Assembly: GCA_947594705.1 (NCBI GenBank)
Contig: CANQEG010000002.1
Location: 1-33,735 of the forward strand
Reading direction: 5' to 3'
Source of the DNA: an uncultured Bacilli bacterium
Lineage (GTDB): Bacteria > Bacillota_I > Bacilli_A > RF39 > UBA660
Length of the DNA: 33,735 bases
The translations under genes were made by a program, and so were the position numbers. The notes under the pieces are model-generated. The model had not been told where the DNA came from. It did not search any database and saw only the letters and a program-made list of their open reading frames with translations. Position 1 is the first letter of the stretch. Each line of letters begins with the position of its first letter. Shown here piece by piece: positions 345 through 31,593 of this stretch.

Positions 345-372
345 TTGCAAAAGTTTAAAAAATATGTATAAT
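345..372 (+). promoter_or_regulatory. Candidate sigma-A promoter of the fibre operon
   Basis: TTGCAA (345-350), 16-nt spacer, TATAAT (367-372), about 40 nt upstream of the first start codon. Confidence 0.45.
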
Positions 373-410
373 AACAATCACAACATTTTAAAAGAAAGAG
401 GTTGAGTGAA

Positions 411-3167
411 ATGAAAGAAAAAAATAAAATTTTGAAAGGATTTCAAAAACTCCGTTTCAAAACGACTGCATTTTTTTTGGGAGCCTCTCTTTTATCGACA
501 AGTTTTACCAGTTTATTTCCTACGATGAAAGCTTATGCGATGGAAAAAGATAGCATGGAAGCATCTTTGGAGAAAAAAAGTAAGGTTATTTTGGCAGGTT
601 CATCTGAGCAAAGTCTTCGCTCAGATGTTGAGGCGCCTCAACATATAATAATAAATATTATCACCTTACCGAATTTAGATGGAACTTATACGGAAATTGT
701 AACTAAGCAAAATCCTGATACATTGGAAATAGAAGAAGAGAAAACGGTGAAACCTTGCGAATTTGGTCAATGGGTCTATCAGAAAGAAACCAATCAAGAT
801 ATACGGACTTGTTCTATTACGGGGTATCAAGAGGTAAGAGAACATGTTCATCAAAACGTATTGTTCAATCGTGATGATGTTTATGAATATCAAAAATGTC
901 TTGTTTGTAATGAAATAAGTAAAGTACCACATCATTATATGGTAAATACCTTCTTAGATGGTACGACTATTTTAACGTGTAAACATTGTGGAAATAATTT
1001 TGATTTTTTAAAGGCAGATATGAATCAAGTTTATCAAAATGCTTTATTACAAGGAATTCAAACGGTTCATACACCTTTTACTTATGAAAATAAAGTGTTT
1101 TTAAAAAGTGATGCTTATTTTGAATATTGGAAAGATACTGCTACCAATGAAATTTTTAGTGTTGCCCATCAATTAGAAGTTTCGCAATCAGAAAATACGA
1201 CACTTTCAAAATGTTTAAATCCTTCTTGTGGTTATCAAAAAAGTGCTTCTAATACTCATCAACATACGGGGACTACTTTTGTTTCGAAAAATGAAATGAA
1301 TGATGTTCTTACTTGTGAATTATGTCATGAACCTTATGAAGATAGTCATGATTATGAATTTAGAGTGAATCCTGACCAAAGTGTTCAACTTATTTGTACA
1401 AAATGTAATCATAGTTTAGATGTAGAGCAAGTAAGAAATGGCAATTTAAATTCGAATGAACAAAAATTAGTACCAAGTAAAGGTTCTGGAGGTGGCTCTG
1501 GTCGTGGAGGCGGAGGTTCTTCAGGCGGCGGTGGTGGAAGCGGAAGCTCTCATAAACATACCCATAATTATACTGTTTTGACGCAAGTGGATGATACTTA
1601 TGAATATTGGAGCTGTGAAAAAGATGGGGATGTTACCAAAATTCCACATCAATTTGCTACGCAAGAAACAGATAAAGAAATTATCACTTATTGTAAGAAT
1701 AAAGGTTGTACTTATCGGAAAGTAGATTTCAAAGAAATACATGATTATAACCGTTATTTAGGAAACTCAGGAAATCAAGAAGTTTGGGGATGTGCAACGT
1801 GTGATAAAACAGTTTTCAAAGATCATAATTTAGGACCTAAACAAATTGATAGAGATACTTTTGAAGAATATCAAAAATGTGAAACACCGGGTTGTGATTA
1901 TGAAATTAGAAAAGAACATGAGCATGATTACTCTATATTACTTCATTGTGATGGAGTTACTGAAGAAAGAGAATGTTCTGGTTGTGGAAAAAAGAAGACA
2001 ATCGAACATATACATCAATTGGGTAAAGAAACAATTGATAGAGAAACGCATGAAGTAGTGAAAAAGTGTGAAACAGCAGGCTGCAATTATGAAGAAAGAA
2101 AAGAGCATGAACATAATTTTTCTAAATTTGTAAGTTGTGATGGAACAAATGAAGTTTATGAATGTCCTGATTGTGGAAAAACAAATACTATTTTACATGA
2201 ACATAAATTGGGAGAAACTTATCAAGAAGATGTTACTTATGATTATTTAAGAGATTGTGAAACACCGGGTTGTGAGTATGTCGAAAGAACTCCTCATTCT
2301 ACAAAACATGAATATCATTTAGATAGTTATGATGAATATTCGGAGACAATGAAATGTGTGTGCGGTAATAGTTATACAAGAGGACATACTTGGAATGAAG
2401 GAACAAGGTTAGAAAGTGGCGAATATTATCAAGAATGTGAAACTTGTGATGCAACAAGAAATTATCACGATCATATTGTTGGAGATCGAGAATATGTTCC
2501 TTTAAAAAATGAAGAAGGATGTTATAAATATATTTATAATTGTAAGATTTGTGGAGAATATGTAACAGAAGATCCACCAGTGCAACATGTGTGGGATGAA
2601 GAAGATGGCATTAAACAGTGTATAAGATGTCGTTATACTGTGTATACCAATCAGGCTTCAGAAATCAATAATATAGAATTAATGCAAGATATTCCGTTAG
2701 AAGATGAAGTTATCATTGATGAAGATGATTTTGAAATTGAAGAATTAGAAGAAGATGTAACAGAAACATTTACTGAAAAAGAAGACATCAAAGAACCGGA
2801 AGAAAAAGAAATAGAAGAAAAGATGGAAGAACCTGAAGATAGTAGCAATGATTTTATAGAAGTAGAAGAAGATGAAATAATTCCTGAAGATGACGATTTT
2901 GAAATTGAAGATTGGAATCAAGATACTGAATCTTTGGAAGAGGAAGATGATTTTCTAATAGAAGATTTCGAAGAAGAATTTGAAGCAGAAGTATCAGAAG
3001 AGGATAATGAAGATGAAATTATTTTTGAAGAATGGGATTTAGAAGAAGAACAACAAGAAAATGCCAAAGAAGAGTTAAAAGAAATTCTTGAAATGGTTTT
3101 ATTTGAAAAAGAAACTCGTAAACAAACATCAACTCTTGTATTAGAAAAAGAAAGAAAAGGGATGTAA
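411..3167 (+). CDS. Secreted Cys/His-rich modular protein with a Gly/Ser linker and a polyacidic C-terminal tail (unknown family)
   Basis: - Start: ATG 411 lies 9 nt after AGAGG; the TTG at 402 in the ORF track abuts the SD.
- Signal peptide: K-rich n-region, hydrophobic core, AYA|ME cleavage-type site.
- Cys content: about 38 Cys by my count, mostly in CX2C/CX4C pairs, each followed by an HxH-aromatic motif (HEHDY, HIHQL, HEHNF, HEHKL and others).
- Linker: GSGGGSGRGGGGSSGGGGGSGSS at nt 1481-1550.
- Tail: the last ~170 aa are dominated by D/E, with repeated DDF(E/L)IE-like motifs.
- No LPXTG or C-terminal TM seen. Confidence 0.8.
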   Translation: MKEKNKILKGFQKLRFKTTAFFLGASLLSTSFTSLFPTMKAYAMEKDSMEASLEKKSKVILAGSSEQSLRSDVEAPQHIIINIITLPNLDGTYTEIVTKQNPDTLEIEEEKTVKPCEFGQWVYQKETNQDIRTCSITGYQEVREHVHQNVLFNRDDVYEYQKCLVCNEISKVPHHYMVNTFLDGTTILTCKHCGNNFDFLKADMNQVYQNALLQGIQTVHTPFTYENKVFLKSDAYFEYWKDTATNEIFSVAHQLEVSQSENTTLSKCLNPSCGYQKSASNTHQHTGTTFVSKNEMNDVLTCELCHEPYEDSHDYEFRVNPDQSVQLICTKCNHSLDVEQVRNGNLNSNEQKLVPSKGSGGGSGRGGGGSSGGGGGSGSSHKHTHNYTVLTQVDDTYEYWSCEKDGDVTKIPHQFATQETDKEIITYCKNKGCTYRKVDFKEIHDYNRYLGNSGNQEVWGCATCDKTVFKDHNLGPKQIDRDTFEEYQKCETPGCDYEIRKEHEHDYSILLHCDGVTEERECSGCGKKKTIEHIHQLGKETIDRETHEVVKKCETAGCNYEERKEHEHNFSKFVSCDGTNEVYECPDCGKTNTILHEHKLGETYQEDVTYDYLRDCETPGCEYVERTPHSTKHEYHLDSYDEYSETMKCVCGNSYTRGHTWNEGTRLESGEYYQECETCDATRNYHDHIVGDREYVPLKNEEGCYKYIYNCKICGEYVTEDPPVQHVWDEEDGIKQCIRCRYTVYTNQASEINNIELMQDIPLEDEVIIDEDDFEIEELEEDVTETFTEKEDIKEPEEKEIEEKMEEPEDSSNDFIEVEEDEIIPEDDDFEIEDWNQDTESLEEEDDFLIEDFEEEFEAEVSEEDNEDEIIFEEWDLEEEQQENAKEELKEILEMVLFEKETRKQTSTLVLEKERKGM
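1848..2225 (+). repeat. Two tandem 189-nt (63-aa) coding repeats inside the Cys/His-rich gene, with a degenerate third copy following
   Basis: IDRDTFEEYQKCETPGCDYEIRKEHEHDYS...CSGCGKKKTIEHIHQLG aligns with IDRETHEVVKKCETAGCNYEERKEHEHNFS...CPDCGKTNTILHEHKLG. The exact 20-mer TGTGAAACACCGGGTTGTGA occurs at 1878-1897 and again at 2256-2275. Confidence 0.85.
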
Positions 3168-3169
3168 TT

Positions 3170-3916
3170 ATGAAAGAAAATAAAAAATGGTATCAATCTA
3201 TTAGTAATATAGTTTTACTAATTGCTTGTATTATTTTAGTACCGATTTTACTTATTAATATTTGGATTATTGCTCAGTCTAAAATAAATCCTGATGAAAT
3301 ACCAAGTGTATTTGGATTTAAACCATTTATTGTGCTTACTGGTTCTATGGAAACAGAAATTTATAAAGGCGATTTGGTTATTTCTAAAGTAGTAGATCCT
3401 TCGACATTAAAAGTAGATGATATTATTGCTTTTAGAGATGCTGAAAATACAGTTACAACTCATAGAATTATTGATATTGTAGAAGATGATGGGGTCAATT
3501 ATTTTATTACGAAAGGTGATAACAATAATACTCAAGATCAAAATTTAGTAGAATATCAAGATGTGGAAGGCCTTTATGTTATGAGAATTCCGGGTTTTGG
3601 AAGTATGATGAATAGTTTAGCTGAACCTATGACTGTTTTAGTAATTTTCCTTGTGATTTCTCTTGCATTTATTATTGGATTTACTATTTCTAGTAGAAGA
3701 CAAAGAGAACAAGAACGAAAAGAGTTTCTAGAATATAAGAAAATGAAAGAGGAAGAAGAAAAGAAAAAAGAAGAAGAAAGTAAGACCAAGAAAACGAAGT
3801 CTATAAAAGCTGAAAAAACAAGTGCTAAAAAAAGTACAACAAAGAAAGTAACAACTACGAAAAAGAAAGAAGCACCGAAGAAAAGTACAACAACTAAGAA
3901 AACAACAAAAAAATAA
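3170..3916 (+). CDS. sipW: SipW-type (archaeal/ER-type, S26B) signal peptidase I with a long Lys-rich C-terminal tail
   Basis: N-terminal TM, VFGFKPFIVLTGSME (Ser box), THRII (His box), TKGDNNNTQD, a second TM, then a ~75-aa K/E/T-rich tail ending KKSTTTKKTTKK. Starts 2 nt after the upstream stop. Confidence 0.85.
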   Translation: MKENKKWYQSISNIVLLIACIILVPILLINIWIIAQSKINPDEIPSVFGFKPFIVLTGSMETEIYKGDLVISKVVDPSTLKVDDIIAFRDAENTVTTHRIIDIVEDDGVNYFITKGDNNNTQDQNLVEYQDVEGLYVMRIPGFGSMMNSLAEPMTVLVIFLVISLAFIIGFTISSRRQREQERKEFLEYKKMKEEEEKKKEEESKTKKTKSIKAEKTSAKKSTTKKVTTTKKKEAPKKSTTTKKTTKK

Positions 3917-3955
3917 TGGTAAAACCACGTAAGTGTTTTACATAGATAGGAAAAC

Positions 3956-3986
3956 GCATAAATTCCTATGCATAAAAATTTATGCA
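3956..3986 (+). promoter_or_regulatory. Operator-like palindrome upstream of the putative major subunit gene
   Basis: TGCATAAA-AA-TTTATGCA (3969-3986) is an 8-bp-arm palindrome. A third half-site GCATAAATT lies at 3956-3964. The site is 30 nt upstream of ATG 4016. Confidence 0.35.
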
Positions 3987-4015
3987 AAAATAAAAATTAG
4001 AAGGAGGTGAAAACA

Positions 4016-4942
4016 ATGAACAAAAAAATGATAACAGTAATTGCTTTATTGTTAGCTGTAGTTATTACAGGTTATTCTGTAAGTGGTACTTATGCCAAAT
4101 ATGCTACCCAATTAAGTGCTACTAGTGACCAAGCAAGAGTTGCACGTTGGGACTTTAAAATAGGAGATACAGAAGAACCTACTGGAACTACTGTAAATTT
4201 AAATTTATTTAAAAGTTCTTATGAATGCACAACTTCTACAGGTCAAAACTGTGTTCAAGCATTAACAAGTTCAAAAGGTACAGAAAAAGGTACACCTGAT
4301 TCTACTGCTAAAATTATTGCACCTGGAACAAGTGGTAAAGCTGAAATTCACTTATCTGTAGATGCAGAAACAGCTTTCACTTTGGCATTTAGTATGGGTA
4401 GTGGAAATGGAAATAAAGTAACTTTAGACTCAACAGAAGTTGATTCAGCATTAAATGGTTTAAGTAATAAAAGTGATGTTATTGAAGCACTTCAAAATAA
4501 GTTAATTCTTGATGGCGAAAAAAATTACAGTCCAGTCAGATTTAAAGTTTCTGCTGGTTCATCAAGTGGAAGTTCTGAGAAAATAGAAAATTTTGAATAT
4601 TCTAAGTTTGCTGAACAATTAAATGCTTTAATTACTCAACTATCAAATAATCAAGCATTTAAGGAAAGTTATTTTATAGTAAAAGGTGAAAGTGTTGTTA
4701 CATCTGGAAGTAAACCTGTATTTAAACCAGTTTCTAAAAAAGAATTTGCCGTTCCTATTACAGTTGAATGGAGTTGGGCTTATGAATATACAGGAAGCGA
4801 ATATTCTAATAAGAATATTGATGCTGATACTATAAAAAAAGCTGTCAATTTACTAGACACTGCATTAGCTCAAAAAGCTGAGAAAACAATTGATTTCAAT
4901 GTTGTAGTTGATGCTGAACAATATAGTGAAACAGCTGCTTAA
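4016..4942 (+). CDS. TasA/BsaA-like SipW-dependent secreted protein, putative major fibre subunit
   Basis: Strong SD AAGGAGG 8 nt before ATG 4016; the track start at 4007 is a GTG inside the SD spacer. The signal peptide ends VSGTYA|KYATQ, resembling the GGTxA|xF SipW-cognate class seen in TasA and camelysin. Ser/Thr/Gly-rich, with no other TM. Flanked by a peptidase gene and followed by a terminator-like hairpin. Confidence 0.6.
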   Translation: MNKKMITVIALLLAVVITGYSVSGTYAKYATQLSATSDQARVARWDFKIGDTEEPTGTTVNLNLFKSSYECTTSTGQNCVQALTSSKGTEKGTPDSTAKIIAPGTSGKAEIHLSVDAETAFTLAFSMGSGNGNKVTLDSTEVDSALNGLSNKSDVIEALQNKLILDGEKNYSPVRFKVSAGSSSGSSEKIENFEYSKFAEQLNALITQLSNNQAFKESYFIVKGESVVTSGSKPVFKPVSKKEFAVPITVEWSWAYEYTGSEYSNKNIDADTIKKAVNLLDTALAQKAEKTIDFNVVVDAEQYSETAA

Positions 4943-4977
4943 AAATTGTGAAGTTATTAATTTAACTTCCAAATAAG

Positions 4978-5002
4978 TCTATGAACTCTCATAGATTTAT
5001 TT
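4978..5002 (+). terminator. Intra-operon (probably partial) terminator after the putative major subunit gene
   Basis: TCTATGA-actc-TCATAGA followed by TTTATTTG. An alternative pairing is AACTCTC/GAGAGTT. Confidence 0.45.
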
Positions 5003-5028
5003 GAGAGTTAGAAAGGAGTGAAAGAATT

Positions 5029-7788
5029 ATGGAAAAAAATGTGAAAAATGAAGAACAAGAAGAAAAAGAACATAAATTAGAAAAAACATTGATTCGAATT
5101 ATTATTTTAATTATCATAATTCTTTTACTTATTGTGGGTTGTAGTTGTACTTCTAAATTGATTGGAAAGATAGGAAGTTTTTTTGCTAATGAAGGAGAAT
5201 TTCCTATAGATGGAAGTAGTGATGAAGAAGTTATTTTAAATCAAAATTTAAGATTTTATTTAGATAATTATGAAATGTATTTTAGTGATAGTAATGGAAA
5301 ACTTGCTTATTATTATGAAAATATAATTCCAAATGGATTTACTTGTTCTACGAGTGATGCCAATATTGCTACTTGTTATGTAAAAGATAATTATGTTGTT
5401 ATTTTACCGAAAAGTGTTGGAGAGTTTGATGTTTTTTTAGAAACAAAAACGAATGGTTATATTTACCGAGCGAAATCTCATGTTGTTATTCATGATAGTA
5501 ATCGTTATATTACTTTGTCTAGTAAAGGTGGAACAATTGATTTAAAAAAAGGAAAAGAAAAAGTTATTTCGGTAACATTGGTTGGTTTAGAAGGAAAAAT
5601 TTCAGTCACTGTAGATGACTCTTCTATCGCGGATGCTTGGTATGAAAATGGAGTTTTAAAAGTTGTTGGAAAAAAGAAGGGGAGTACCAATGTAAATGTA
5701 TCGGTAACATATGAAGGAAAAACTTATACAGCAACTTATCAAGTAAGAGTGACTGAAACACAAGAAAATACATTAAAAAGTTTAACTTTTTCTGGAGGAG
5801 ATTTACATTTTTCCTCTAATCGTTATCATTATGCTATTTCTGTTTCAAGTAAAACTACCCATGTTACTTTTGAAGAAACGTTAAGTGATAAAAATGCTAA
5901 AACAGAATTTTATTGGAATGGAGAAAAAGTAGATTCTTTAAAAGATTTAGAATTAAAAAACGGAAATAATAAATTAGAAATTGTAGTAAAGGGTGATGAT
6001 GGAAGTACAACAACTTATGAAGTAGATGTTTACAAAGAAACTTCTCATAATACACTTGATAGTTTAAAACCAAGTACAGGAGTGTTATCGCCTAATTTTC
6101 AAGAAAATATTTTATGGTATACGTTAGATGTCGATTATAAAACAAATCATTTAGATGTGTTCTCTTCTTTTCATGATGTTTCTAATGTAAAATATTTTGT
6201 AAATGGAAAAGAAGTAGATTCTTTAAAGGATGTTGTTCTTTCTTATGGTGATACAGATATTTATATTCAAGTAACTGGTGATGATGGAAGTATAAGAGAA
6301 TATCATATTACTGTGCATCGTAAAAAAAGAGAAGTTCTATTTGATTCTAATCATTATGATGTGTTTATAGATTCTAATGAAAAAGCAGTTCCATTTCAAA
6401 TTGTTGAAGATGAACAATTATTAAATTCCAAAGATTATGATTTAAAAAAAGAAGATATTACGATAGATGGTTATGTTGGTGATTATACGGTAAAAAATGG
6501 AGTAGTATATTTTTCTCCAGATATTTCTATGAGTGGAAAAACAGTGAAAATGAAAGTAAAATATGGTGATGAAGAAATTGAAGTTGAAGTGACTTTTAAA
6601 AATCGAGATTATTATTTTGCATCACAAAGTTCTTCTTATTATTTAGAATTATTAGAAGAGGAAGATGAAAAAACAGCTAGTTTTGTTTTTCCAAATAATT
6701 TATTTACGGGAAAAGTGAAATCTAAAAAATTGGATGATGGTACAATTCGAATTTATGATGAAGACCATCCTGATATTTATGTCGATATCATTCCTAAAAA
6801 TGAAAATGCCAAATCTTTAAAAGATGGAGATATTCATGTTCATTTAGAAGATACTTCTTCTTTAGTAGTTGATGTAGATGTTGAAAATGCAGGAGATTAT
6901 GATTTCCATGTAAAAGCAAGTGTTTTTGAAGAAAATATAGGAGAAACTGATGTTTCGTTACATGTTGTAAAAACATATCATTTTACTATTTTAGCTAATG
7001 GTGGTTTCTTTGATGAATTTACAAATGAAGGGTATATTACTAAGTATGAATTTTCTGTGAAAAGCAATGAAACATTTGATTTAAGTCAAATAAAAGCATA
7101 TAAAACTGCGGATGAAACAAACTGTTTATACTATGTTCTAAAAGGTTATAGTATTAGTAGTAATGGAGATATTTTATATTCTCCTTCTGATAAGATTACA
7201 CTCACTCAAAATACTACTTTGTATGCAATATATAAAGAGGAAGAACAAGAAAAAGTAGAATTGCAGGAAAAGAAAAAATTATATTTGACTGATGTAGATT
7301 TATTTGTGAATAAAGATTTTGATGAGCAAAAAGTAATTTATCCGGGAGCAACGGGTTATTATATTATGGATTTTCCAAATGAAAGTAAAGAAGAAATTAC
7401 CATCACGGGAATTACTTTAGAAGAAGATACAATTTGTTATGATGAAGGTTGTTTAAATATGGGTTATTTCTTTAAAAATCAAGAGGATTATCATTATTTT
7501 GGTTCAGTAGGAACGTATGATGTTTTAAATACACATCCTAATACGTTAAAAACTTCTAGTCATACAAAAAATGAAATAGAGTTTCCAAAAGAACAATATG
7601 TAAAAGTTGCAGCTGGAGAAACAGCGAGATTTTTCTTAGGGTGGCAATGGGTAGATGATGGTCTTCATGATGTGTTAGATACTAAGATTGGAAATAATAC
7701 ATTGGTGAAAGATACATATGAACTTACAGTAAGTATTGATTTTTATACCCAGAAAACCAATTGTAGTTTGGACAGTGATAGCCCATGA
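5029..7788 (+). CDS. Large membrane-anchored multi-domain surface protein (Big_2-like, 2x cadherin-like beta-sandwich, Listeria-Bacteroides repeat, C-terminal subunit-like domain)
   Basis: - N-terminus: TM LIRIIILIIIILLLIVGCSC, with a possible lipobox IVGC.
- Ig-like segment: ...VVGKKKGSTNVNVSVTYEGKTYTATYQVRV.
- Two ~95-aa repeats, L(K/D)SL...G.L...Y...V...G....Y.(V/I).V, at nt ~5771-6325.
- Listeria-Bacteroides-type repeat: YHFTILANGG...LYAIYKEE.
- C-terminal ~190 aa share the blocks K(I/V)IxPG(A/T)(S/T)G, (E/G)WxW, LDT and (S/T)IDF with the 4016-4942 product. Confidence 0.75.
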   Translation: MEKNVKNEEQEEKEHKLEKTLIRIIILIIIILLLIVGCSCTSKLIGKIGSFFANEGEFPIDGSSDEEVILNQNLRFYLDNYEMYFSDSNGKLAYYYENIIPNGFTCSTSDANIATCYVKDNYVVILPKSVGEFDVFLETKTNGYIYRAKSHVVIHDSNRYITLSSKGGTIDLKKGKEKVISVTLVGLEGKISVTVDDSSIADAWYENGVLKVVGKKKGSTNVNVSVTYEGKTYTATYQVRVTETQENTLKSLTFSGGDLHFSSNRYHYAISVSSKTTHVTFEETLSDKNAKTEFYWNGEKVDSLKDLELKNGNNKLEIVVKGDDGSTTTYEVDVYKETSHNTLDSLKPSTGVLSPNFQENILWYTLDVDYKTNHLDVFSSFHDVSNVKYFVNGKEVDSLKDVVLSYGDTDIYIQVTGDDGSIREYHITVHRKKREVLFDSNHYDVFIDSNEKAVPFQIVEDEQLLNSKDYDLKKEDITIDGYVGDYTVKNGVVYFSPDISMSGKTVKMKVKYGDEEIEVEVTFKNRDYYFASQSSSYYLELLEEEDEKTASFVFPNNLFTGKVKSKKLDDGTIRIYDEDHPDIYVDIIPKNENAKSLKDGDIHVHLEDTSSLVVDVDVENAGDYDFHVKASVFEENIGETDVSLHVVKTYHFTILANGGFFDEFTNEGYITKYEFSVKSNETFDLSQIKAYKTADETNCLYYVLKGYSISSNGDILYSPSDKITLTQNTTLYAIYKEEEQEKVELQEKKKLYLTDVDLFVNKDFDEQKVIYPGATGYYIMDFPNESKEEITITGITLEEDTICYDEGCLNMGYFFKNQEDYHYFGSVGTYDVLNTHPNTLKTSSHTKNEIEFPKEQYVKVAAGETARFFLGWQWVDDGLHDVLDTKIGNNTLVKDTYELTVSIDFYTQKTNCSLDSDSP

Positions 7789-8435
7789 AATGGTTAAAAA
7801 GAATTCTTTTTTGGATTATTACTGGTATATTAGTTTTGATATTTCTCTTTAATGTAACTATGTTTTTTGAAAAAAATATTTTGAAAAAAGATTTTCCTTC
7901 TTTCTTTGGGTATTCTCTTTTAGAAGTTGTATCAGGTTCTATGGAACCAACAATACATATAGGCGATTATATCGTAGTAGATACCCATGTGAAAGAATTT
8001 CATGAAAATGATATTGTAACATTTAGAGATGTAAATGGTTCTTTTGTAACACATCGTTTAGTAAAAATTCAAGATGATTTGATGATTACCAAAGGAGATG
8101 CAAATGACCCAGAAGATGAACCAATGCCAATGAGTAGCATTGTTGGGTTATATCGTTTTAAACTTACCTCATTAGGAAAGGTATTTGCTTCTTTTAAAAC
8201 ACCTTTTGTCAGTATTATGATTTTGGTGATTGGAATTTTGATTTGTGTTTTATTAAGTACAGATAAAAATGGAGAACCAATTTTAGAAGAAGATGAAAAA
8301 GAATTTCAAGAATATTTAAAAATGAAAGAAGAAAAGAAAGAAAAGAACATTTTAGAAAAATTAAAAGAAAAAGTGTCAAAAAAGAAAAAGAAAAAAACAA
8401 AGAAAAAAAATAAGAAAAAGAAAAAGAAGAAGTAG
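7785..8435 (+). CDS. sipW: Second SipW-type signal peptidase I with a polylysine C-terminal tail
   Basis: ATGA overlap with the upstream gene. FFGYSLLEVVSGSMEPT, THRLV, TKGDANDPED, a second TM, and a tail ending KKKKKKTKKKNKKKKKKK. It shares the post-TM motif KEFxEYxKMKEE with the first peptidase. Confidence 0.85.
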   Translation: MKWLKRILFWIITGILVLIFLFNVTMFFEKNILKKDFPSFFGYSLLEVVSGSMEPTIHIGDYIVVDTHVKEFHENDIVTFRDVNGSFVTHRLVKIQDDLMITKGDANDPEDEPMPMSSIVGLYRFKLTSLGKVFASFKTPFVSIMILVIGILICVLLSTDKNGEPILEEDEKEFQEYLKMKEEKKEKNILEKLKEKVSKKKKKKTKKKNKKKKKKK

Positions 8436-8443
8436 GTGAGAAG

Positions 8444-9073
8444 ATGAAACAGTTATGGAAAAGTAAAAGATTTCGAAAAAATTTATATCGTTGGCTTTTT
8501 ATGTATGTAGGAGTTATGCTTTTATTTACATCGGTGGTAACGTATTCGAAGTATATTTCAACTCTACAAAGTAGTGATGCAGCTCGAATGCCTACTTTTG
8601 ATGTAAAAATTGCAATGCAAGAAAAATGTGATGATGAAGAGACTACTTGTAATACTGGAACTTTTCGACCAACTAGTGAAATTACGTATCAATTTGAAGC
8701 AAAAACTAATTTGGAAGTAAAAACAGAAGTCTTTTATACCATTATGATTAATAATCGTTTTCATTTTTTAGGATTAACTGATATTACTGATGGTACTCTT
8801 GTTCCAGTAACTGATTTTACATCTTCTGATGTTTCAAAAGATATTGTTACAGGAAGTTCTTCAGAATCTTATAAAACATATACTTGGAAAGTATCATACG
8901 ATGCGGGAAGTGAAGAAATCAAAAAGTATCAAGTAAAAGTTCAATTTGATAATTTATATTGCCCAAGTGGTCAAGTAGATTGTAATAAAGATAAAGAAAA
9001 TTATCAAAACATCTCAAAAACTGCTTACGATATATTAAGAATTGGTTATTCTGCAATTCAGTTAAATGATTAG
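8444..9073 (+). CDS. Small secreted protein with the same N-terminal motif as the putative major subunit (minor or accessory subunit candidate)
   Basis: TSVVTYS|KYISTLQSSDAARMPTFDVKI aligns with VSGTYA|KYATQLSATSDQARVARWDFKI of the 4016-4942 product. SD AGGTGAG upstream. Confidence 0.55.
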   Translation: MKQLWKSKRFRKNLYRWLFMYVGVMLLFTSVVTYSKYISTLQSSDAARMPTFDVKIAMQEKCDDEETTCNTGTFRPTSEITYQFEAKTNLEVKTEVFYTIMINNRFHFLGLTDITDGTLVPVTDFTSSDVSKDIVTGSSSESYKTYTWKVSYDAGSEEIKKYQVKVQFDNLYCPSGQVDCNKDKENYQNISKTAYDILRIGYSAIQLND

Positions 9074-9085
9074 AAAGGAGAAAAA

Positions 9086-10759
9086 ATGATAAAATATATG
9101 AAAAATAAAAAAGTAATTATGGTATTCTTTTATACATTTTTTCTCTTTGTTACTTGTTCTTTATTTACAGTAAATTTTTCTGGAGCAAAATTTAAGGATG
9201 ATGAAGAGTATGCTGTTGTTTATAATAGTAATTTATCACAAATTTATTATGATGAACAATTTGTTTCTTATCATGAAAATATTAGTAATCAAGAATATCT
9301 TTATGCTATTGTGGATGTAAAACCAAATCCGGGAAGAGGAGATGGAAGTAGTTATAGTAAGGATAACTATACTATTACAGTATCAGAAGGTTGTACAATT
9401 AAAACAAGAGAAAGCACAAATTATTTAAATAGTAATACAATAACAGTAAATTTAAAAGGAAAGACTACTACACAATTTTTAGATGTTAAATGTTCGGTAG
9501 ATAATCCTAATATTATATATAATAAAGTCTACTGGCGAATTCAAGCTAAAATTGAAGAACAAATTGATAATGAACCTAAATTTTTATATCGAAAAGGGTT
9601 TGTAACAATTGAGTCATTGCCAAAGGAACCAGAAGAAGAAACACCAAAAATCACAAAAACTATTTCTAAATCTATTGGAAATCCTTATCAAGAATTAGTG
9701 AAATGGTTAGAAGCTTATTTAAGTAAATATTATGATGAAGCTGGAAATGAGGATTACCCTTATATTAGAAAAGCAATTTTAGGAAATTCTACTGATGATG
9801 GTTATATAACAAAATATAAAAATAATCAATTTGATTCAGGAGTTTTAGGGTTAAAAATTACAGAAACCGAAGATTCTTATACTTTTCAAATAGAAGAAAA
9901 TTTTATTGGTTATGCTAGAACTTGGGAAAATTTTCATTATAATACAGGTTTAAAATATTTATATTTTAATGAAGAACCTGACAATTTACTAAATTCAGCT
10001 CACATAAAAAATATTTTTGTTAATTATTTAAAAGAATATGTTTATAAAAATGATCTTGGAACATTTGAATTGGTAAAGCAATATATCGATGAAAATGAGT
10101 TTGATATTTCTGGATTTGTTCTCAATGGCACTCCTTCTATTGAAGGATTAGTTCGTAATTTAGTGGGAACTACACCAGCAATACGTGTTTCTAGTTCATT
10201 TTTGAAAAATGCTACTGATTATTTTGATCAACCTATTAGTGTTTTGGTGGATGATAATGTTTTGACGACATTGGAAAGTAAAATAAAAAATAATCCTGTA
10301 TATTATCATCGCGTAACTGATAGTATGATTCAAGAAATGAAAAAAGATTCGGCTTTTCTTCAAGCTTTGGAAAATACTGAAATAATTAATTACTTTTCTT
10401 ATTATGATAAAGAGAAAGGGTATGTTGGAGTTAGTATTTCTCCTAGTAAAACTTTAAATCAAAAAGATATTGCGATTACATCTCTTGATTTTCTAAAAAA
10501 TGTTAGTGATTTTAAATTAGAAAATTTAAGTGATGAAGTTTTAAGTATTACATTAACCATTCCTAATGAAAACGAAAGTGAAGATGATACTTTGATGATG
10601 AATGTGGTATCTTCTTTAGATACATATTTTAAGGTTTCTTCTAGTATTCATAAAGAGGAAGGAAAAACTACTTATGGAACAATTCCAAGTGAAATTGTCG
10701 TAGAACAAAAAAATGGCAGATTGATTTCATTAACATATCATATTGTAAAAAATGTCTAA
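9086..10759 (+). CDS. Secreted or anchored hypothetical protein, last gene of the operon
   Basis: SD AAAGGAG. The N-terminal hydrophobic segment ends TVNFSGA|KFKDDEE, with small residues at -3/-1 and K-aromatic at +1/+2 as in the two subunit-like proteins. I do not recognise any family. Confidence 0.5.
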   Translation: MIKYMKNKKVIMVFFYTFFLFVTCSLFTVNFSGAKFKDDEEYAVVYNSNLSQIYYDEQFVSYHENISNQEYLYAIVDVKPNPGRGDGSSYSKDNYTITVSEGCTIKTRESTNYLNSNTITVNLKGKTTTQFLDVKCSVDNPNIIYNKVYWRIQAKIEEQIDNEPKFLYRKGFVTIESLPKEPEEETPKITKTISKSIGNPYQELVKWLEAYLSKYYDEAGNEDYPYIRKAILGNSTDDGYITKYKNNQFDSGVLGLKITETEDSYTFQIEENFIGYARTWENFHYNTGLKYLYFNEEPDNLLNSAHIKNIFVNYLKEYVYKNDLGTFELVKQYIDENEFDISGFVLNGTPSIEGLVRNLVGTTPAIRVSSSFLKNATDYFDQPISVLVDDNVLTTLESKIKNNPVYYHRVTDSMIQEMKKDSAFLQALENTEIINYFSYYDKEKGYVGVSISPSKTLNQKDIAITSLDFLKNVSDFKLENLSDEVLSITLTIPNENESEDDTLMMNVVSSLDTYFKVSSSIHKEEGKTTYGTIPSEIVVEQKNGRLISLTYHIVKNV

Positions 10760-10772
10760 TGGACATTTTTTT
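10748..10772 (+). terminator. Rho-independent terminator closing the seven-gene operon
   Basis: AAAAATGTC-taatg-GACATTTTTTT overlapping the stop codon. Confidence 0.7.
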
Positions 10773-10824: not shown

Positions 10825-11394
10825 ATGAGAAAACAAAGTAAAACTAGAAATAGAATTCGAAGAATTTGTAGAGAAATGGATTATCAAGGGTATCTTTCAC
10901 ATGAAGATGCTTTAAAAATGGAAGAGTTATGTATTGATTCTATTTTAAATTTAGATGAAGTTGGGCCTGTTTTGGCGAAAGTAATGAGTGAAATAGAACA
11001 AAAAACATTTTTCTTTTTACATGGAATTATGCTTTGTAATGATGAAGAAAGAAGTGGTTTTACAGCGAGTATTCCTTGTCAAAAATTTGAAGAATTTTAT
11101 GGAATTGTAAGAGAAGATTTCAACCTTCCTATTTTTTATTCTACTCATGAAAATATTCCCGTATATCGTGTTCTTGATGATTTTGAACATATTTGTAAAC
11201 TGTATTTTGAAGAAATGTTTTTACATGAACGAATTGAAAATGAGATGGAAGAGTTTTCGTTTTACTTTCCTAGTATGGAATTAAAAAATATTCAGGAAAA
11301 TGAAAATATAAAAAGAGAATATTTAAGAAAATTTATTAAAAGATATATTGAATTAAAAGAAGAAAAGAAAGAAGAAAGCATTTTATTTAAATAG
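10825..11394 (+). CDS. Hypothetical cytoplasmic protein
   Basis: Long ORF with SD AGAGGGAAG. No TM and no motif I recognise. Confidence 0.5.
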   Translation: MRKQSKTRNRIRRICREMDYQGYLSHEDALKMEELCIDSILNLDEVGPVLAKVMSEIEQKTFFFLHGIMLCNDEERSGFTASIPCQKFEEFYGIVREDFNLPIFYSTHENIPVYRVLDDFEHICKLYFEEMFLHERIENEMEEFSFYFPSMELKNIQENENIKREYLRKFIKRYIELKEEKKEESILFK

Positions 11395-11666: not shown

Positions 11667-12527
11667 ATGAAAAAATTAGTATGTTTGATGGTATTATTTA
11701 CGCTTTTTCTTTTTACTGGTTGTGGTAATAATGAATTGAATACAATTTATACAACTGTGTATCCGATTGAGTTTTTAACAAAGAGTTTATATGGAAATCA
11801 TGCAACTATTACATCTATTTATCCAAATGGAACGAAAATTAATGAATATGAACTTACTAGTAAACAAATCGATACATATAGTAAAGGAACATTTTTTATT
11901 TATAATGGAACAACAGAAGAAAAACAAATTGCTAAAATGATGGTCAATAAAAGAAAAAAATTAAAAATTATTGATGTAGCATATAGTTTGAAATATGAAT
12001 ATGGTATGGAAGAATTATGGCTTAGTCCAAGTAATTTTTTGATGCTTGCGACTAATTTAAAAGATGGATTAGAAAATCAAGTAGGTTCAAAATATACCAA
12101 TGAAGAAATTGATAAAAATTTTCGCGATTTAGAAGAACGTTTATCAATTATGGATGCAGAGATTAGAAGTACAGCGAAGAATGCTGTTGAACGGGGTAAA
12201 AATACGATTATTGCTTCGCAAAATGTTTTTAAATTTTTAGAAGATTATGGTTTTACCGTTATTAGTTTGGCTGATTATGAAAAAGATTCTCCTAATTTTG
12301 AAGCGTTAAAAAATAATTTTAAATCGGGAACTTATACTTATATTTTGGTTTCTAATTTAGATCAAGATAATGAACTAGTAAAGGAATTAAGTGCTGTTTC
12401 TAAAGTGGAAACTATTACAGTACCATTTATGCATACATTAGAGAAAACAGATGTAGAAAATAATAATGATTATTTTACAATGATGAATGATTTTTTATCT
12501 AACTTAAAAACGATGACAAATAATTAA
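11667..12527 (+). CDS. ZnuA/TroA-family metal-binding lipoprotein (ABC substrate-binding protein), orphan
   Basis: Lipobox LFTGC. Overall resemblance to cluster-9 solute-binding proteins (IYTTVYPIEFL..., ...FIYNG...). No permease or ATPase gene adjacent. Confidence 0.6.
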   Translation: MKKLVCLMVLFTLFLFTGCGNNELNTIYTTVYPIEFLTKSLYGNHATITSIYPNGTKINEYELTSKQIDTYSKGTFFIYNGTTEEKQIAKMMVNKRKKLKIIDVAYSLKYEYGMEELWLSPSNFLMLATNLKDGLENQVGSKYTNEEIDKNFRDLEERLSIMDAEIRSTAKNAVERGKNTIIASQNVFKFLEDYGFTVISLADYEKDSPNFEALKNNFKSGTYTYILVSNLDQDNELVKELSAVSKVETITVPFMHTLEKTDVENNNDYFTMMNDFLSNLKTMTNN

Positions 12528-12531
12528 ACAT

Positions 12532-12553
12532 AAAAAAACCCTAAATTTTAGGG
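12532..12553 (-). terminator. Terminator downstream of tRNA-Lys (minus strand)
   Basis: CCCTA/TAGGG stem. On the minus strand it is followed directly by TTTTTTT. On the plus strand the U-run is displaced, so it is at best weak for the ZnuA-like gene. Confidence 0.5.
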
Positions 12554-12568
12554 GTTATCATTCTTTTT

Positions 12569-12644
12569 TGGTGTCCCCACACGGGCTCGAACCGTGGACC
12601 CACTGATTAAGAGTCAGTTGCTCTACCAACTGAGCTATGGAGAC
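12569..12644 (-). tRNA. tRNA-Lys (anticodon CUU)
   Basis: The reverse complement reads GTCTCCA-TA-GCTCAGTTGGTAGAGC-A-ACTGA-CTCTTAA-TCAGT-GGGTC-CACGG-TTCGAGC-CCGTG-TGGGGAC-A-CCA. Confidence 0.9.
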
Positions 12645-17230: not shown

Positions 17231-18979
17231 TTATGGTGTTAGAACAATACGAAAACCAACACCTTTATACCCTCCTCCATGACCATAATAAAAATTACCA
17301 AGACCTGAAAGTGTACCACGATTAAATCCAGCATCACCACCTCTAGTAAACCATGGAAAACCTTTATGCACAAATAAAGCTTTATCTAAAAAAAAACTAC
17401 TTGTTTCACCAGAGAAAGGTCCTAATTCCTTGGTCGCATCTCCTAAATGTCCTCTTTGATATGTTGATCGACTTGTATTATAATCATATAAATCATAATA
17501 TTTAGTAGAAGGCAACTGCATTCCATCTTTTTTTTCACCTACTATATTTGTATATAGTCCGTTAAAACCAGAATTATTAGTTTCATCGGATCCACTTGCT
17601 GGATTAGAATTATTGTTACTCCCTTGCATTACGCCCATTACATATTCATTTGCTCCACCTGACATATCATAAATACCAGAATAATTATTAGTTGTACTAG
17701 CAACAACACTGGAAGAATTATTATAATTCCAGCCATATTTTCCTTCTTCATTTATATCTATATTTTCTTCATATTTATTACATTCTTCATTTGTTTCAGT
17801 ATAACCACAAGTTGGATCAAAGTTAGCAGAATACCCAGTAATATAATTTCCATTATTATTTATTCTAAGCTCAGTACAAGAAGTTTCATTACATCTTCCG
17901 TAAATTGAGTAAGTCAAATAAAAAACTGCACCCCATTCTGAATTTTTCATCATATGGCTTTCTAATTCTCTTAAATAATTATAAGAAGCATAGAAGGCAT
18001 TTCCAACGGAAATATTTCCCCAACTATACATATTTGGTTTTATGACAATTTTGTCTGATTCTTGTGAGTTTTGTTGGGCGCTATTTGTATCAATAGCATC
18101 AGCATAACCAGTTTCAAATTTACCTACCCACATTCCATTACTAGTAAACGATAAAAATGCTGGATGTGTAAGCCATGAATTTTGTGTGCTTCCAGATGAT
18201 ATTCCTTCATTTTTACTTTCAAATTTAATAAAATACGGAGTAATTACATCAGAGTTTCCTTTATTAACATACAAATTATATGCTTCTTCATCATCTTTTA
18301 ATTGATATCTATATCTGGGAATCCATACCAAGTAGGATTCTATATCACCTTCTTTTATTTCATCTCCTGGTTGATAATTATCTACTTTACCATCTTTAAG
18401 TATCACGGCATTGGCCCATTTCTTATTTGTATAACTATACCAAGGGTCGTCTGTATCAGTAATATCTGCTTTTATTACCTTTCCTCCATAGTTATTTTCA
18501 GCATTTGTATATTCTGTAACATCACTTGGCTTTTCTGTATCACTTATTTTTACGGGAATAAGTCTTCCATTTCCTAAATCTGGTATTGCTCCATTTAATA
18601 TTTCTTCTTTGTATATTTGTTTAAACTTTAAATAGCATTTTGTTTTGGTGGTACTTATATTCTTTAACTCAACACTCCATCTTTCATCATTCCATGAAAT
18701 TAAATCACCATTATCACAATAACTTGTACTGGTATCTAAGGAATACCCACTTTCTTTACTTGGTACATCTTTTTGTAAAACATCATCTATATATACCATG
18801 AATCTAATGTCGCCTTCATCTTGTATATTTCCTTCAATCATATTTTGGTTTTCGTTTACCTGAAATATAGCAAAAGTTCTATATAAAATTACGCCAGTGA
18901 TTAATAATATACAACTTATTGTAAATAAAATGATTCCTACTTTTTTAGGATTTTTTTCTTTAAATCTTTTTAATTCCAT
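17231..18979 (-). CDS. Membrane-anchored extracellular protein with an FGE-sulfatase (SUMF1/C-type-lectin-like) domain, paralog 1
   Basis: N-terminal TM. Blocks [42 protein letters not shown] (compare the GxYDMxGNVWEW motif of FGE-like domains), RGGDAG, and a C-terminal GFRIVLTP. Confidence 0.65.
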   Translation of the reverse strand: MELKRFKEKNPKKVGIILFTISCILLITGVILYRTFAIFQVNENQNMIEGNIQDEGDIRFMVYIDDVLQKDVPSKESGYSLDTSTSYCDNGDLISWNDERWSVELKNISTTKTKCYLKFKQIYKEEILNGAIPDLGNGRLIPVKISDTEKPSDVTEYTNAENNYGGKVIKADITDTDDPWYSYTNKKWANAVILKDGKVDNYQPGDEIKEGDIESYLVWIPRYRYQLKDDEEAYNLYVNKGNSDVITPYFIKFESKNEGISSGSTQNSWLTHPAFLSFTSNGMWVGKFETGYADAIDTNSAQQNSQESDKIVIKPNMYSWGNISVGNAFYASYNYLRELESHMMKNSEWGAVFYLTYSIYGRCNETSCTELRINNNGNYITGYSANFDPTCGYTETNEECNKYEENIDINEEGKYGWNYNNSSSVVASTTNNYSGIYDMSGGANEYVMGVMQGSNNNSNPASGSDETNNSGFNGLYTNIVGEKKDGMQLPSTKYYDLYDYNTSRSTYQRGHLGDATKELGPFSGETSSFFLDKALFVHKGFPWFTRGGDAGFNRGTLSGLGNFYYGHGGGYKGVGFRIVLTP

Positions 18980-23614: not shown

Positions 23615-24181
23615 TTATTCACTCAAAGCAACACATTCTTTAGTTTTTAAGTTACATTTATAACTAATTCCAATAATTTCATTATTTTCTTTACGAGTTT
23701 CCCCTCTTAAAATAATATAATTTGTTGTTACTTCTTCAATGGATAAAGCATGAAAGTTTGAAATGCGTTCATTTAAAAAACTATCTTTTTCATTTGTTTC
23801 TAAATTATAAATTTCTCCATTCATATAATATAACTTTCCATCATAAAATTTAAAATATCTTTTAGCTTCTTGCATATTAATAAACCTATAAGTATTTAAT
23901 AGTTCATATTTATTTTCATCAATTTCTTTTAACAAACCTGTTTCATAATAATCTTTTACTGGATGTCCTGCTTCATTATATTCTGTAATATCTCCTAATA
24001 AAAATCGACTTCCCTCAAAATAAAAATTAATGGTATCTTTTTCATCATAAGTTTTATAAATATACTCTTTTGTATCTTTATTATTTTTGGTAGCTATCAT
24101 CAACAAACCTATTGTTCCACATAATGTAATTACAAACATACCTATCATAAGAATTATTGTTTTTCTTTTCATATATTCCAT
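23615..24181 (-). CDS. Hypothetical membrane-anchored protein
   Basis: One N-terminal TM (IILMIGMFVITLCGTIGLLMIA). The start is probably ATG 24172, which has better SD spacing than 24181. No recognisable family. Confidence 0.5.
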   Translation of the reverse strand: MEYMKRKTIILMIGMFVITLCGTIGLLMIATKNNKDTKEYIYKTYDEKDTINFYFEGSRFLLGDITEYNEAGHPVKDYYETGLLKEIDENKYELLNTYRFINMQEAKRYFKFYDGKLYYMNGEIYNLETNEKDSFLNERISNFHALSIEEVTTNYIILRGETRKENNEIIGISYKCNLKTKECVALSE

Positions 24182-27097: not shown

Positions 27098-27769
27098 ATG
27101 AAAAATTTAACAAAAGATGATTTAAAATTTTATCAAAAAAATTCTTTAGAAATTCCTATTGGGATAGATAGAAAAAGAAATTCTGTCAGTTATTTTCATC
27201 TAGAAAGTGCTTCTATTCATCTTGTTTTATCAAAAGAAAAGCAATATTTACCCTTTTTAACTGATTTGGCAAATTTACTTATTTTTTTAAACCCTTATTT
27301 TCAGGTAATTGTTATTGATGAAAATGAAGAAGTTACAAATTTAGATTCTTCGATTATTTATATTTCTAAAAATAAAGTACTTGATTTTTTTTATAACTTA
27401 GATAAAATGGATACAAAACCAAAAATTATGATGATTCATTCTATTTATCATTTATTTCAAAATAAAAATGAAGAACAAATAAAAGTAATAGAATCTTTTT
27501 TAGAAAAAGAAAAATATTTTATTCTTTTTGATAGTTTAGATCATATAAAACATTTTACAAAGAAAGAATGGTTTTTAAAAAATGTAAATTTAGAAAACGG
27601 AATATGGTTAAATGAAGGTTATATTAATGAGCCGTTTTTTTCTATTAAACATCATCATATAAATTTATATAAAGATAATATAAAAGATGAAAATTACGGA
27701 ATACTTATTCAAGATGGTTGTGCAGATATTATTCAAATTATTCATGAAAAAAAGGAAAAAAACATTTGA
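27098..27769 (+). CDS. Hypothetical protein, possibly a degenerate (Walker-A-less) FtsK/EssC-like domain
   Basis: LEIPIGIDRKRNSVSYFHLESASIHLVLS and the C-terminal GILIQDGCADIIQII resemble the start and end of FtsK/SpoIIIE-type domains. No GxxGxGK(S/T) motif is present. Confidence 0.4.
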   Translation: MKNLTKDDLKFYQKNSLEIPIGIDRKRNSVSYFHLESASIHLVLSKEKQYLPFLTDLANLLIFLNPYFQVIVIDENEEVTNLDSSIIYISKNKVLDFFYNLDKMDTKPKIMMIHSIYHLFQNKNEEQIKVIESFLEKEKYFILFDSLDHIKHFTKKEWFLKNVNLENGIWLNEGYINEPFFSIKHHHINLYKDNIKDENYGILIQDGCADIIQIIHEKKEKNI

Positions 27770-30251: not shown

Positions 30252-30277
30252 ATCATAGAATTTTTGGTTCTATGATT
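30252..30277. terminator. Bidirectional terminator between convergent genes
   Basis: ATCATAGAA-tttttgg-TTCTATGAT with T-runs on both sides. The eno stop codon lies within the stem. Confidence 0.65.
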
Positions 30278-31523: not shown

Positions 31524-31539
31524 TTTTATCACCACTTTT

Positions 31540-31568
31540 AGTATATCAAAAGTCCGAATAACATACAA
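31540..31568 (-). promoter_or_regulatory. Candidate sigma-A promoter of eno
   Basis: On the minus strand: TTGTAT (31568-31563), 17-nt spacer, TATACT (31545-31540). Confidence 0.5.
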
Positions 31569-31593
31569 AAGAAATTCAAAAGAAAATGTAAAG

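Follow-up and report, generated by a model that had tools for sequence, protein, structure and literature searches.

A conserved operon of uncultured gut Bacilli with two SipW-class signal peptidases and candidate TasA-like fibre subunits

A block of seven tightly packed plus-strand open reading frames (ORFs; positions 411-10759) in the genome of an uncultured Bacilli bacterium probably encodes a surface fibre of the TasA/BsaA type, assembled by strand donation. The block is located in the 33,735-nucleotide stretch of contig CANQEG010000002.1 (assembly GCA_947594705.1) that was analysed here, which is referred to as the window, and its ORFs are labelled g1 to g7 in their order along the plus strand. 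The products of g2 and g5 are assigned to the SipW class of signal peptidases, those of g3, g6 and g7 carry a common type of predicted cleavage site, and profile alignments show g6 and the C-terminal domain of g4, a lipobox protein with cadherin-like domains, to be paralogues of g3. The gene order is conserved across species.

Gene order and conservation of the locus

The intergenic gaps from g1 to g7 are 2, 99, 86, -4 (an ATGA overlap), 8 and 12 nt, respectively, and long spacers border g3 alone within the block. These values agree with a preliminary description of the locus, made from the sequence alone, in which the gaps were given as 2-12 nt or an ATGA overlap except around the gene for the putative major subunit.

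Related loci were retrieved through a pattern search for the subunit N-terminus, derived from a 13-sequence alignment, with one genome taken per species. The 55 loci found are all in gut metagenome genomes (mouse, rabbit and other hosts), most of which are labelled uncultured Bacilli, Tenericutes or Erysipelotrichaceae. The order g2-g3-g4-g5-g6 is preserved in 47 of 47 loci that are long enough, the other eight being cut by contig ends, and a g7-type ORF occupies the next position in most loci. The gene neighbourhood, whose conservation the preliminary description had proposed to examine, is thus the same in every related locus of sufficient length, while the flanks of the block vary from species to species. 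Judged by gene order, the core of the system is the six genes g2-g7, with g1 as an accessory. The hosts are walled, low-G+C gut Bacilli; wall-less Mollicutes were considered and ruled out by the use of TGA as a stop codon (in the ATGA overlap) and by the genes for a penicillin-binding protein transpeptidase and MraY that adjoin the operon in locus L034. Six of the loci (L004, L033, L039, L044, L055 and L058) come from genomes labelled 'uncultured Muribaculaceae' (Bacteroidota) and one (L032) from a genome labelled 'Clostridia', which are probably binning or labelling errors.

Two SipW-class signal peptidases

The product of g2 (3170-3916, plus strand) and that of g5 (7785-8435, plus strand, in ATGA overlap with g4) score 90.3 and 75.7 bits, respectively, against TIGR02228, a model of the archaeal/endoplasmic reticulum (ER)-type signal peptidase I that also covers SipW; both values exceed the curated cutoff of 51.85 bits. 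The two proteins contain the boxes GSME(T/P), THR(I/L) and TKGD(N/A)N, and the earlier recognition of two SipW-class peptidases from their Ser and His boxes is borne out. The GSM and THR motifs are present in 54 and 56, respectively, of the 56 g2-type sequences (the window copy and 55 orthologues), and in 45 and 48 of the 48 g5-type sequences (the window copy and 47 orthologues). Neither g2 (98.8 bits) nor g5 (76.5 bits) reaches the cutoff of 190 set for NF046067, the equivalog model of Bacillus SipW. By these models, g2 and g5 belong to the SipW class (archaeal/ER-type, S26B) but are not orthologues of Bacillus SipW.

The two peptidases are alike in their membrane segments, one N-terminal and one C-terminal, the latter being followed by a Lys-rich tail. 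They are homologous (hhalign 100%), and at more distant loci the first peptidase matches the g2 profile best and the second the g5 profile best. On these profile matches, g2 and g5 are separate lineages. They are old paralogues, and substrates are probably divided between them. No other gene of the block is as well conserved as g2, which has 53-74% identity across orthologues. The Lys-rich cytoplasmic tails behind the second membrane segment are encoded at 3700-3916 and 8280-8435 of the window; Lys and Arg make up 30-34% of the last 50 residues of the peptidases across orthologues, and the length of the tail differs widely among species (the total length of g2 ranges from 187 to 411 aa).

Cleavage sites and the candidate major subunit

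The candidate major fibre subunit is the 308-aa product of g3 (4016-4942, plus strand), with predicted cleavage after Ala27 (SGTYA↓KY). Its signal peptide ends in YSVSGTYA↓KY, that of g6 (8444-9073, plus strand; 209 aa, predicted cleavage after Ser35, VVTYS↓KY) ends in SVVTYS↓KY, and that of g7 (9086-10759, plus strand; 557 aa) ends in FSGA↓KF, such that a site of the form small-x-[A/S]↓K-[Y/F] is common to the three products. The preliminary description had noted the (G/V)TY(A/S)↓KY ending of g3 and g6 and counted at least two secreted proteins of this kind. This ending is seen in both proteins and is conserved in their orthologues, and g7, whose variant FSGA↓KF was absent from that description, is to be added to the two. 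Among the 56 ORFs of the window, called on both strands by our own script at a length of at least 60 aa with one start per open frame, g3 and g6 are the only two with T[YFW][AS]K[YF] in their first 70 residues.

The stretch SVSGTYAKY is invariant in the 56 g3-type sequences, which comprise the window copy and 55 from the related loci, among them the second copies of L017 and L038. The end of the g6 signal, V[IV]TYS↓[KR]Y, is found in all 48 g6 sequences; of the g7-type sequences, 29 have a hydrophobic stretch at the N-terminus, and in 24 of these a looser site, [SAGT][KR][YF], comes after it (window included in each case). The g3 site conforms to the -3/-1 rule and is shaped like GGTWA↓AF in TasA, the sequence of which was verified against PDB entry 8aur. 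Around the cleavage site the identity among g3-type proteins is 90%, against 31% for the body, making this stretch the most conserved part of the protein; PGxxG, WxW, D[TS]xxG and a C-terminal Q, the motifs outside the signal, are each present in 55-56 of the 56 sequences. By motif alone, g3 and g6 have a SipW-cognate-type signal, in which small-aromatic-Ala↓x-aromatic follows a hydrophobic core, and no NCBIfam signal-peptide model matched the signals of the subunits. The likeness to the GGTxA↓xF class that had been suggested is accordingly one of motif shape, to which the curated signal models lend nothing. Two species carry two major subunit genes in tandem with identical N-terminal regions (L017, 1096-2592; L038, 1593-3117).

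Paralogues of g3 within the block

The 919-aa product of g4 (5029-7788, plus strand) is a lipobox protein with an immunoglobulin (Ig)/cadherin-like stalk and a subunit-like C-terminus. Its N-terminus consists of a charged stretch, a poly-Ile/Leu segment and the lipobox IVGC (Cys38). The lipobox, [IL]TSC in related loci and IVGC in the window, and GKIG are invariant in the 48 sequences (window included) matched by the search pattern, and the conserved motif after the lipobox reads TS-K-x-x-GKIG / F-[FW]-G-K-I-G. Two Cadherin-like domains (PF12733, E 5e-22) are present, one at residues 249-336 and the other a second copy. The subunit-like domain spans residues ~745-915 (nt ~7261-7788), and the g3 family aligns with the last 230 residues of g4 at an hhalign probability of 95.1% (E 3e-8). 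The Ig/cadherin-like protein ending in a subunit-like domain that the preliminary description had put forward is confirmed by both the PF12733 match and this alignment. The g3 family also aligns with g6, the candidate minor subunit, at 95.7% (E 9e-9). By these profile alignments, g3 has two paralogues in the block, namely g6 and the C-terminal domain of g4.

The motifs of the family are distributed unequally among the three. The KY N-terminus, PGxxG, WxW, D[TS]xxG and the C-terminal Q occur in 56, 55, 56, 55 and 56, respectively, of 56 g3 sequences; in 48, 0, 0, 8 and 48 of 48 g6 sequences; and in 0, 40, 49, 49 and 21 of 52 g4 C-terminal domains. The sets retained by the latter two are complementary: g6 keeps the motifs of the N-terminal strand, while the g4 domain keeps those of the body. 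Because the g4 domain has a subunit-type body without a KY strand of its own, g4 might accept a strand without donating one.

The cytoplasmic N-region of g6 (MKGLLxSKRFRKNLxKWLFMY; residues 1-35, 8444-8548) is 70% identical across species, compared with 26% for the mature body, which is odd for a supposedly discarded part of the protein. One of the peptidases may use this N-region as a tag to recognize g6; alternatively, g6 may be an uncleaved, membrane-anchored subunit.

No fold could be assigned to the large protein encoded by g7. No Pfam, NCBIfam or PDB relative was found, as the earlier labelling of this 557-aa product as unknown would lead one to expect, and a word-index search returned only g7 itself. 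Its likeness to g3 and g6 is confined to the signal region. The possibility that the block arose by tandem duplication of a three-gene module was ruled out, as g7 is without similarity to g4. Searches of the PDB by sequence with g1, g4 and g7 gave nothing beyond matches to low-complexity linkers, and LPxTG-like motifs and C-terminal membrane anchors are absent from all seven products.

Relationship of the subunits to TasA

A model of g3 was built with AlphaFold2 (predicted local distance difference test score, pLDDT, 67.8; predicted template modelling score, pTM, 0.62). In a fold search of the PDB with this model, the sole match below E 1e-3 was the TasA fibre, 8aur_A (E 9e-4, probability 0.96). 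When the family was aligned by hhalign with TasA and five Bacillus plasmid 'TasA family' proteins a P of 0.0024 was obtained, and P was 0.02-0.05 against TasA alone. Four landmarks are colinear between TasA and the g3 family: GGTWA↓AF with SGTYA↓KY, LKPGD with APGTxG, WFW with WxW, and FEATQ with TATQ.

Several results weigh against a TasA-type fibre. The g3 model is of only moderate confidence and its template-modelling (TM) scores to TasA are low (0.28 and 0.35), and the six-sequence TasA comparison above, a small alignment, gives a probability of only 12%. Scans of all seven products, and of 32 close and 71 wider family members at E up to 1-10, gave no match to Pfam or NCBIfam models of TasA, camelysin or the SipW-cognate signal, and g3, g6 and these relatives fall into no Pfam or NCBIfam family at all; PF12389 (IPR022121; TasA/CalY/camelysin) and the NCBIfam 'TasA family protein' model likewise do not match g3, g6 or the g4 tail. 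Searches of PDB sequences with subunit-family profiles never reach TasA, and the Bacillus plasmid TasA proteins are retrieved only with TasA itself as the query. The AlphaFold2 model of g6 is poor (pLDDT 52.8), its best matches being generic β-sandwiches, with TasA at rank 15. Finally, the subunit-like domain of g4 possibly contains a strand in cis, which weakens the idea that it is an acceptor only.

We conclude with moderate confidence that the relationship between the g3 family and TasA is distant but real, and with similar confidence that g3 has a TasA-like β-sandwich/jelly-roll fold. The preliminary description would have been abandoned had structure prediction found no such jelly-roll in any of the candidates; the match of the g3 model to the TasA fibre means that it stands in this respect. 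Its broader suggestion that the candidates resemble TasA and camelysin is upheld for g3 through its fold and for g6 and the g4 tail through their homology to g3, but not by the curated families nor by the g6 model.

The subunit family is large. Searches with its profile against 1.84 billion cluster representatives (50% identity clusters) returned 8,956 clusters at E ≤1e-3 and 1,721 at E ≤1e-30. The best of these members measure ~200 aa and align over their full length, and all clusters sampled are unnamed or annotated as 'hypothetical protein', with no Pfam family. No plasmid or phage homologue was detected for g3 or for a typical member of the family. Five more distant loci were inspected, of which L067 has the full seven-gene form. 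In L064 and L068 the cassette runs from the subunit through one or more proteins with a subunit-like domain to a g5-type peptidase and a second subunit with a similar site, while the contigs of L065 and L066 stop short of the position of the second subunit. The g4 of L065 is a minimal, 206-aa version comprising a membrane segment, the GKIG motif and the subunit-like domain. The cassette of L064 (6077-11413) closes with a very large ORF of >1,779 aa that runs off the contig and may substitute for the adhesin-like component.

Expression of g3 relative to its neighbours

The 99-nt spacer before g3 (3917-4015, plus strand) contains small hairpins, a promoter-like site (3937-3964) and a ribosome-binding site (GAAGGAGG). 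The g2-g3 and g3-g4 spacers are ~100 nt across loci; the median of the former is 99 nt (54 loci), compared with ~10 nt at other junctions. Directly 3' of g3, a strong stem-loop (4961-5012, plus strand) reaches the ribosome-binding site of g4. It folds at -24.3 kcal/mol (z -7.1), a value that none of 200 shuffles attained, and of the g3-g4 spacers of 52 related loci, 49 fold far better than their shuffles (median z -5.25). The stem-loop recurs despite differing spacer sequences. It probably sets the ratio of the major subunit to the downstream products, whether it acts as an attenuator, stabilizes the mRNA or occludes the ribosome-binding site of g4. Separate spacers and a hairpin after g3 are expected if g3 is needed in large excess.

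Proposed assembly and alternative explanations

From these data we infer fibre formation, polymerization, cleavage and a role for each part as follows. The fibre would be built without sortases or chaperone-usher machinery. The products of g3, g6 and g7 would be secreted through Sec and processed by g2 and/or g5, and cleavage would expose the conserved N-terminal strand (KY-x-S...D-x-ARVAKW). g3, made in excess of the downstream products by virtue of its own spacers and the following hairpin, would polymerize through insertion of this strand into the β-sandwich of the next subunit, as in TasA. g4 would be held at the membrane by its lipobox cysteine and display its subunit-type body at the end of the Ig/cadherin-like stalk, serving as the base of the fibre or, alternatively, as a FimH-like end adhesin. 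With its strand present and its body atypical, g6 may act in the manner of TapA, as a nucleator or a cap; g7, in which an N-terminus of this kind precedes a large unrelated domain, could be an end piece or a passenger; and g1 would be a variable, probably metal-binding, accessory. The one feature of the locus that speaks for polymerization by strand donation as such is the conserved N-terminal strand.

The main rival to the strand-donated fibre, which we regard as rather unlikely, is an export and processing module in which the SipW-type peptidases mature β-sandwich adhesins or coat proteins together with a cadherin-like lipoprotein, all of them acting as monomers. It would account for the adhesin-type domains of g4, for g7 and g1 having no recognizable subunit fold, for the generic β-sandwiches matched by the g6 model and for the weak sequence link to TasA, and it is compatible with polymerization of g3 being deduced rather than seen. 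It fits less well with the strand just after the cleavage site being the most conserved part of g3 (90% versus 31%), as would befit an assembly strand. A subunit domain on the end of a stalk and a strand-only paralogue are hard to explain for independent monomers, a hairpin that separates the expression of g3 from that of its neighbours is expected of a bulk structural subunit, and the only significant structural match is to a fibre subunit.

A fibre may also be formed without a defined base or tip. In that case the locus would encode a loose TasA-like scaffold of the biofilm matrix, g6 and g7 would be chaperones or nucleators comparable to TapA and CapP, and g4 would be an unrelated adhesin that shares a domain. 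TasA and BsaA are precedents for matrix fibres (PMC9674648, PMC11580942), the N-terminus of g6 mimics the strand of g3 as that of TapA mimics TasA (PMC10151520), and the cell-surface location of the fibre is deduced from the genes. The invariant lipobox of g4 and its subunit-type C-terminus, however, are kept in 47 species, which argues for a link between membrane and fibre, and the pairing of a membrane segment with a pilin-like domain persists even in the minimal 206-aa version of L065. We therefore hold a loose scaffold to be improbable. A type IV pilus-like or sortase-dependent pilus locus, at which the hydrophobic N-termini and weak, sub-threshold matches of a few family members to pilin N-terminal models might hint, is very improbable indeed: genes for a prepilin peptidase, an assembly ATPase, a platform protein and a sortase are all missing from the locus, as is an LPxTG motif, the conserved cleavage site follows the hydrophobic segment instead of preceding it, and the peptidases are type I enzymes of the SipW class.

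If the TasA/BsaA-type fibre is accepted, a further step can be proposed tentatively, as a possibility to which we attach limited confidence: the block could be the type example of a widespread class of Gram-positive fibre. Such a fibre would be a polar heteropolymer made without chaperone, usher or sortase, with a lipoprotein bearing a strand-accepting domain at one end and the strand-only paralogue and a large strand-bearing protein at the other. The two specialized peptidases would time or order the assembly by controlling the release of each N-terminal strand, and a covalent lock between subunits might be formed through the invariant N-terminal Lys and the conserved Glu and Asp of the body.

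Comparison with described systems

TasA polymerizes by N-terminal donor-strand exchange (PMC9674648), and TapA starts this polymerization with a strand that mimics that of TasA, a case of strand complementation (PMC10151520). The B. subtilis locus tapA-sipW-tasA resembles the one described here in that a dedicated SipW-class peptidase adjoins a secreted β-sandwich subunit. The TasA signal peptide, like that of g3, ends in G-T-aromatic-A↓x-aromatic, TasA is the only significant structural match of g3, and TapA corresponds to g6 in having an N-terminus that mimics the subunit strand. Unlike tapA-sipW-tasA, which has one peptidase, the present locus has two, its subunits are not recognized by PF12389 or the NCBIfam TasA models, and its six to seven genes stand in a fixed order. 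It has in addition the 919-aa cadherin-like lipoprotein with a terminal subunit domain, the 557-aa substrate and the Cys/His-rich protein.

The C. perfringens locus sipW-bsaA-bsaB-bsaC is similar in that several TasA-like paralogues and a large non-subunit protein are located behind sipW. A 2025 preprint reports that in the BsaA/TasA family, a set of 2,172 proteins, several paralogues may share an operon with a signal peptidase and adhesin-domain proteins (PMC11580942); membrane-anchored BsaA oligomers and multi-paralogue operons are described there, and heteropolymers have already been suggested (PMC11580942). As with the proteins studied here, most members of that family fall outside the curated camelysin family (PMC11580942). 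In contrast to the present locus, where neither feature is seen, BsaC has a von Willebrand A domain and relies on type IV pilus genes; the BsaA operon lacks the second peptidase. BsaA is locked by an Asn-Glu-Lys isopeptide triad; the g3 family has a Lys at +1, a conserved Glu and the Asp of D[TS]xxG, and a corresponding bond is only conjectural.

Loci for the archaeal bundling pili AbpA/AbpB also place a TasA-like subunit beside a larger secreted protein, proposed as a starter or adhesin, but have no dedicated peptidase (PMC9245690). Profile searches of the PDB detected no profile or sequence link from the g3 family to AbpA/AbpB. An analogy, and no more, can be drawn with chaperone-usher pili of the FimH type: in g4, adhesin-like domains are joined to a subunit-type domain that has no N-terminal strand of its own, and the gene for the major subunit is set off by a downstream hairpin. 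In contrast to these pili, the present system has no chaperone, usher or outer membrane, the folds are unrelated, and the subunit domain of g4 is C-terminal in a protein with a lipobox.

Searches of the literature with the motifs as strings, and for TasA operons with two peptidases, retrieved no description of the system. The preliminary claim that the combination of genes lies outside the described TasA and BsaA systems is upheld to that extent, and is tempered by the preprint on operons with paralogues, a peptidase and adhesin-domain proteins (PMC11580942). Similarly, the proposal of a distinct assembly system is sustained as regards the architecture, which is new; the system itself falls within the known TasA/BsaA kind and is not a new kind, and the fibre is a deduction. 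What is new here is the fixed two-peptidase architecture of six to seven genes, the size of a subunit family unrecognized by curated databases and, on the motif and profile evidence, a lipoprotein with a terminal subunit domain and a strand-only paralogue.

A conserved fibre with a cadherin-like component would be a plausible colonization factor for uncultured bacteria of the mouse and rabbit gut, and a possible handle by which they might be isolated or imaged. The TasA-like assignment would lend a tentative function to many 'hypothetical proteins' among the thousands of family members. Two SipW-class peptidases in constant association with a strand-only paralogue, a body-only domain and the major subunit amount to a simple genetic system for the study of assembly order, and could show how strand-exchange fibres gain a defined start and end without chaperone or usher.

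The accessory protein g1

The 918-aa product of g1 (411-3167, plus strand) is a secreted protein with a predicted Sec-type signal (MKAYA↓ME). Its 38 Cys and 36 His residues and its acidic tail were counted, and agree with the earlier picture of a Cys/His-modular acidic protein. The Cys and His residues are arranged in ~16 short modules ~30 residues apart, in each of which CxxC or Cx4C is followed by HxH; a Gly/Ser-rich linker is located at residues ~345-385, and a 190-residue tail is ~50% Asp plus Glu. No Pfam, NCBIfam or PDB relative was found. The modules look like a string of small metal-binding units, and on this pattern g1 is probably metal-binding. A Cys/His-rich ORF immediately precedes the first peptidase gene in ~37 of ~44 assessable loci, and we class g1 on this distribution as accessory and not core. 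A subclade (L031, L032, L034, L039 and L049) is without the Cys/His-rich g1; in these loci a conserved gene of ~140 aa with a bacterial PH domain (MAYIKFKELAKYFDFK...) precedes the first peptidase. A gene for a ZnuA-type zinc-uptake lipoprotein is found just downstream of the block (11667-12527).

Flanks and other features of the window

The preliminary description had presented the block as running from promoter to terminator beside a pair of tRNA genes. The seven tight plus-strand genes are present at the coordinates it gave, but the ends of the block are less well defined. A promoter-like site upstream of g1 (TTGCAA-16-TATAAT, 345-372, plus strand) matches at 10 of 12 positions. Such sites number 77, compared with 72 expected from shuffled sequence, with no enrichment in the region, and because they are equally frequent in shuffles the assignment of 345-372 as the promoter of g1 is unproven. 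The start of g1 is placed at the ATG at 411 (plus strand), which the ribosome-binding site at 388-398 fits; a TTG at 402 is a possible alternative. At the other end, an A/U-rich terminator-like hairpin followed by a U run (10747-10771, plus strand) overlaps the stop codon of g7. This hairpin is weak (-11.1 kcal/mol, z -2.9) and was missed by a consensus terminator scan, which demands G+C-rich stems.

Both tRNA genes, tRNA-Glu (2-77) and tRNA-Ile (83-159), are upstream of the block, and a hairpin with a T run at ~170-196, read directly from the sequence, lies between them and the promoter-like site. The tRNA neighbourhood is not conserved across species and seems irrelevant to the block. The G+C content is even over the whole window, and housekeeping genes are found elsewhere in it (those for RNase III, SMC, UvrB and enolase), as is the ZnuA-type lipoprotein gene. 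Given the even G+C content and the housekeeping nature of the rest of the window, the block is chromosomal, with no obvious island; a genomic island at the tRNA genes was ruled out by these two features and by the species-specific flanks.

The stretch 12537-12644, between the ZnuA-type and RNase III genes, holds a tRNA-Lys (CTT) gene on the minus strand and, adjoining it, a palindromic hairpin (12537-12556) with a terminator-like score on both strands. Five more ORFs of the window are without a Pfam family: 10825-11394 (189 aa), 17231-18979 (582 aa), 23615-24181 (188 aa), 27098-27769 (223 aa) and 31594-33318 (574 aa). The last of these shares ~100 nt with the enolase ORF (30270-31697) at the called start of the latter, and because of this overlap the enolase start is probably located further downstream.

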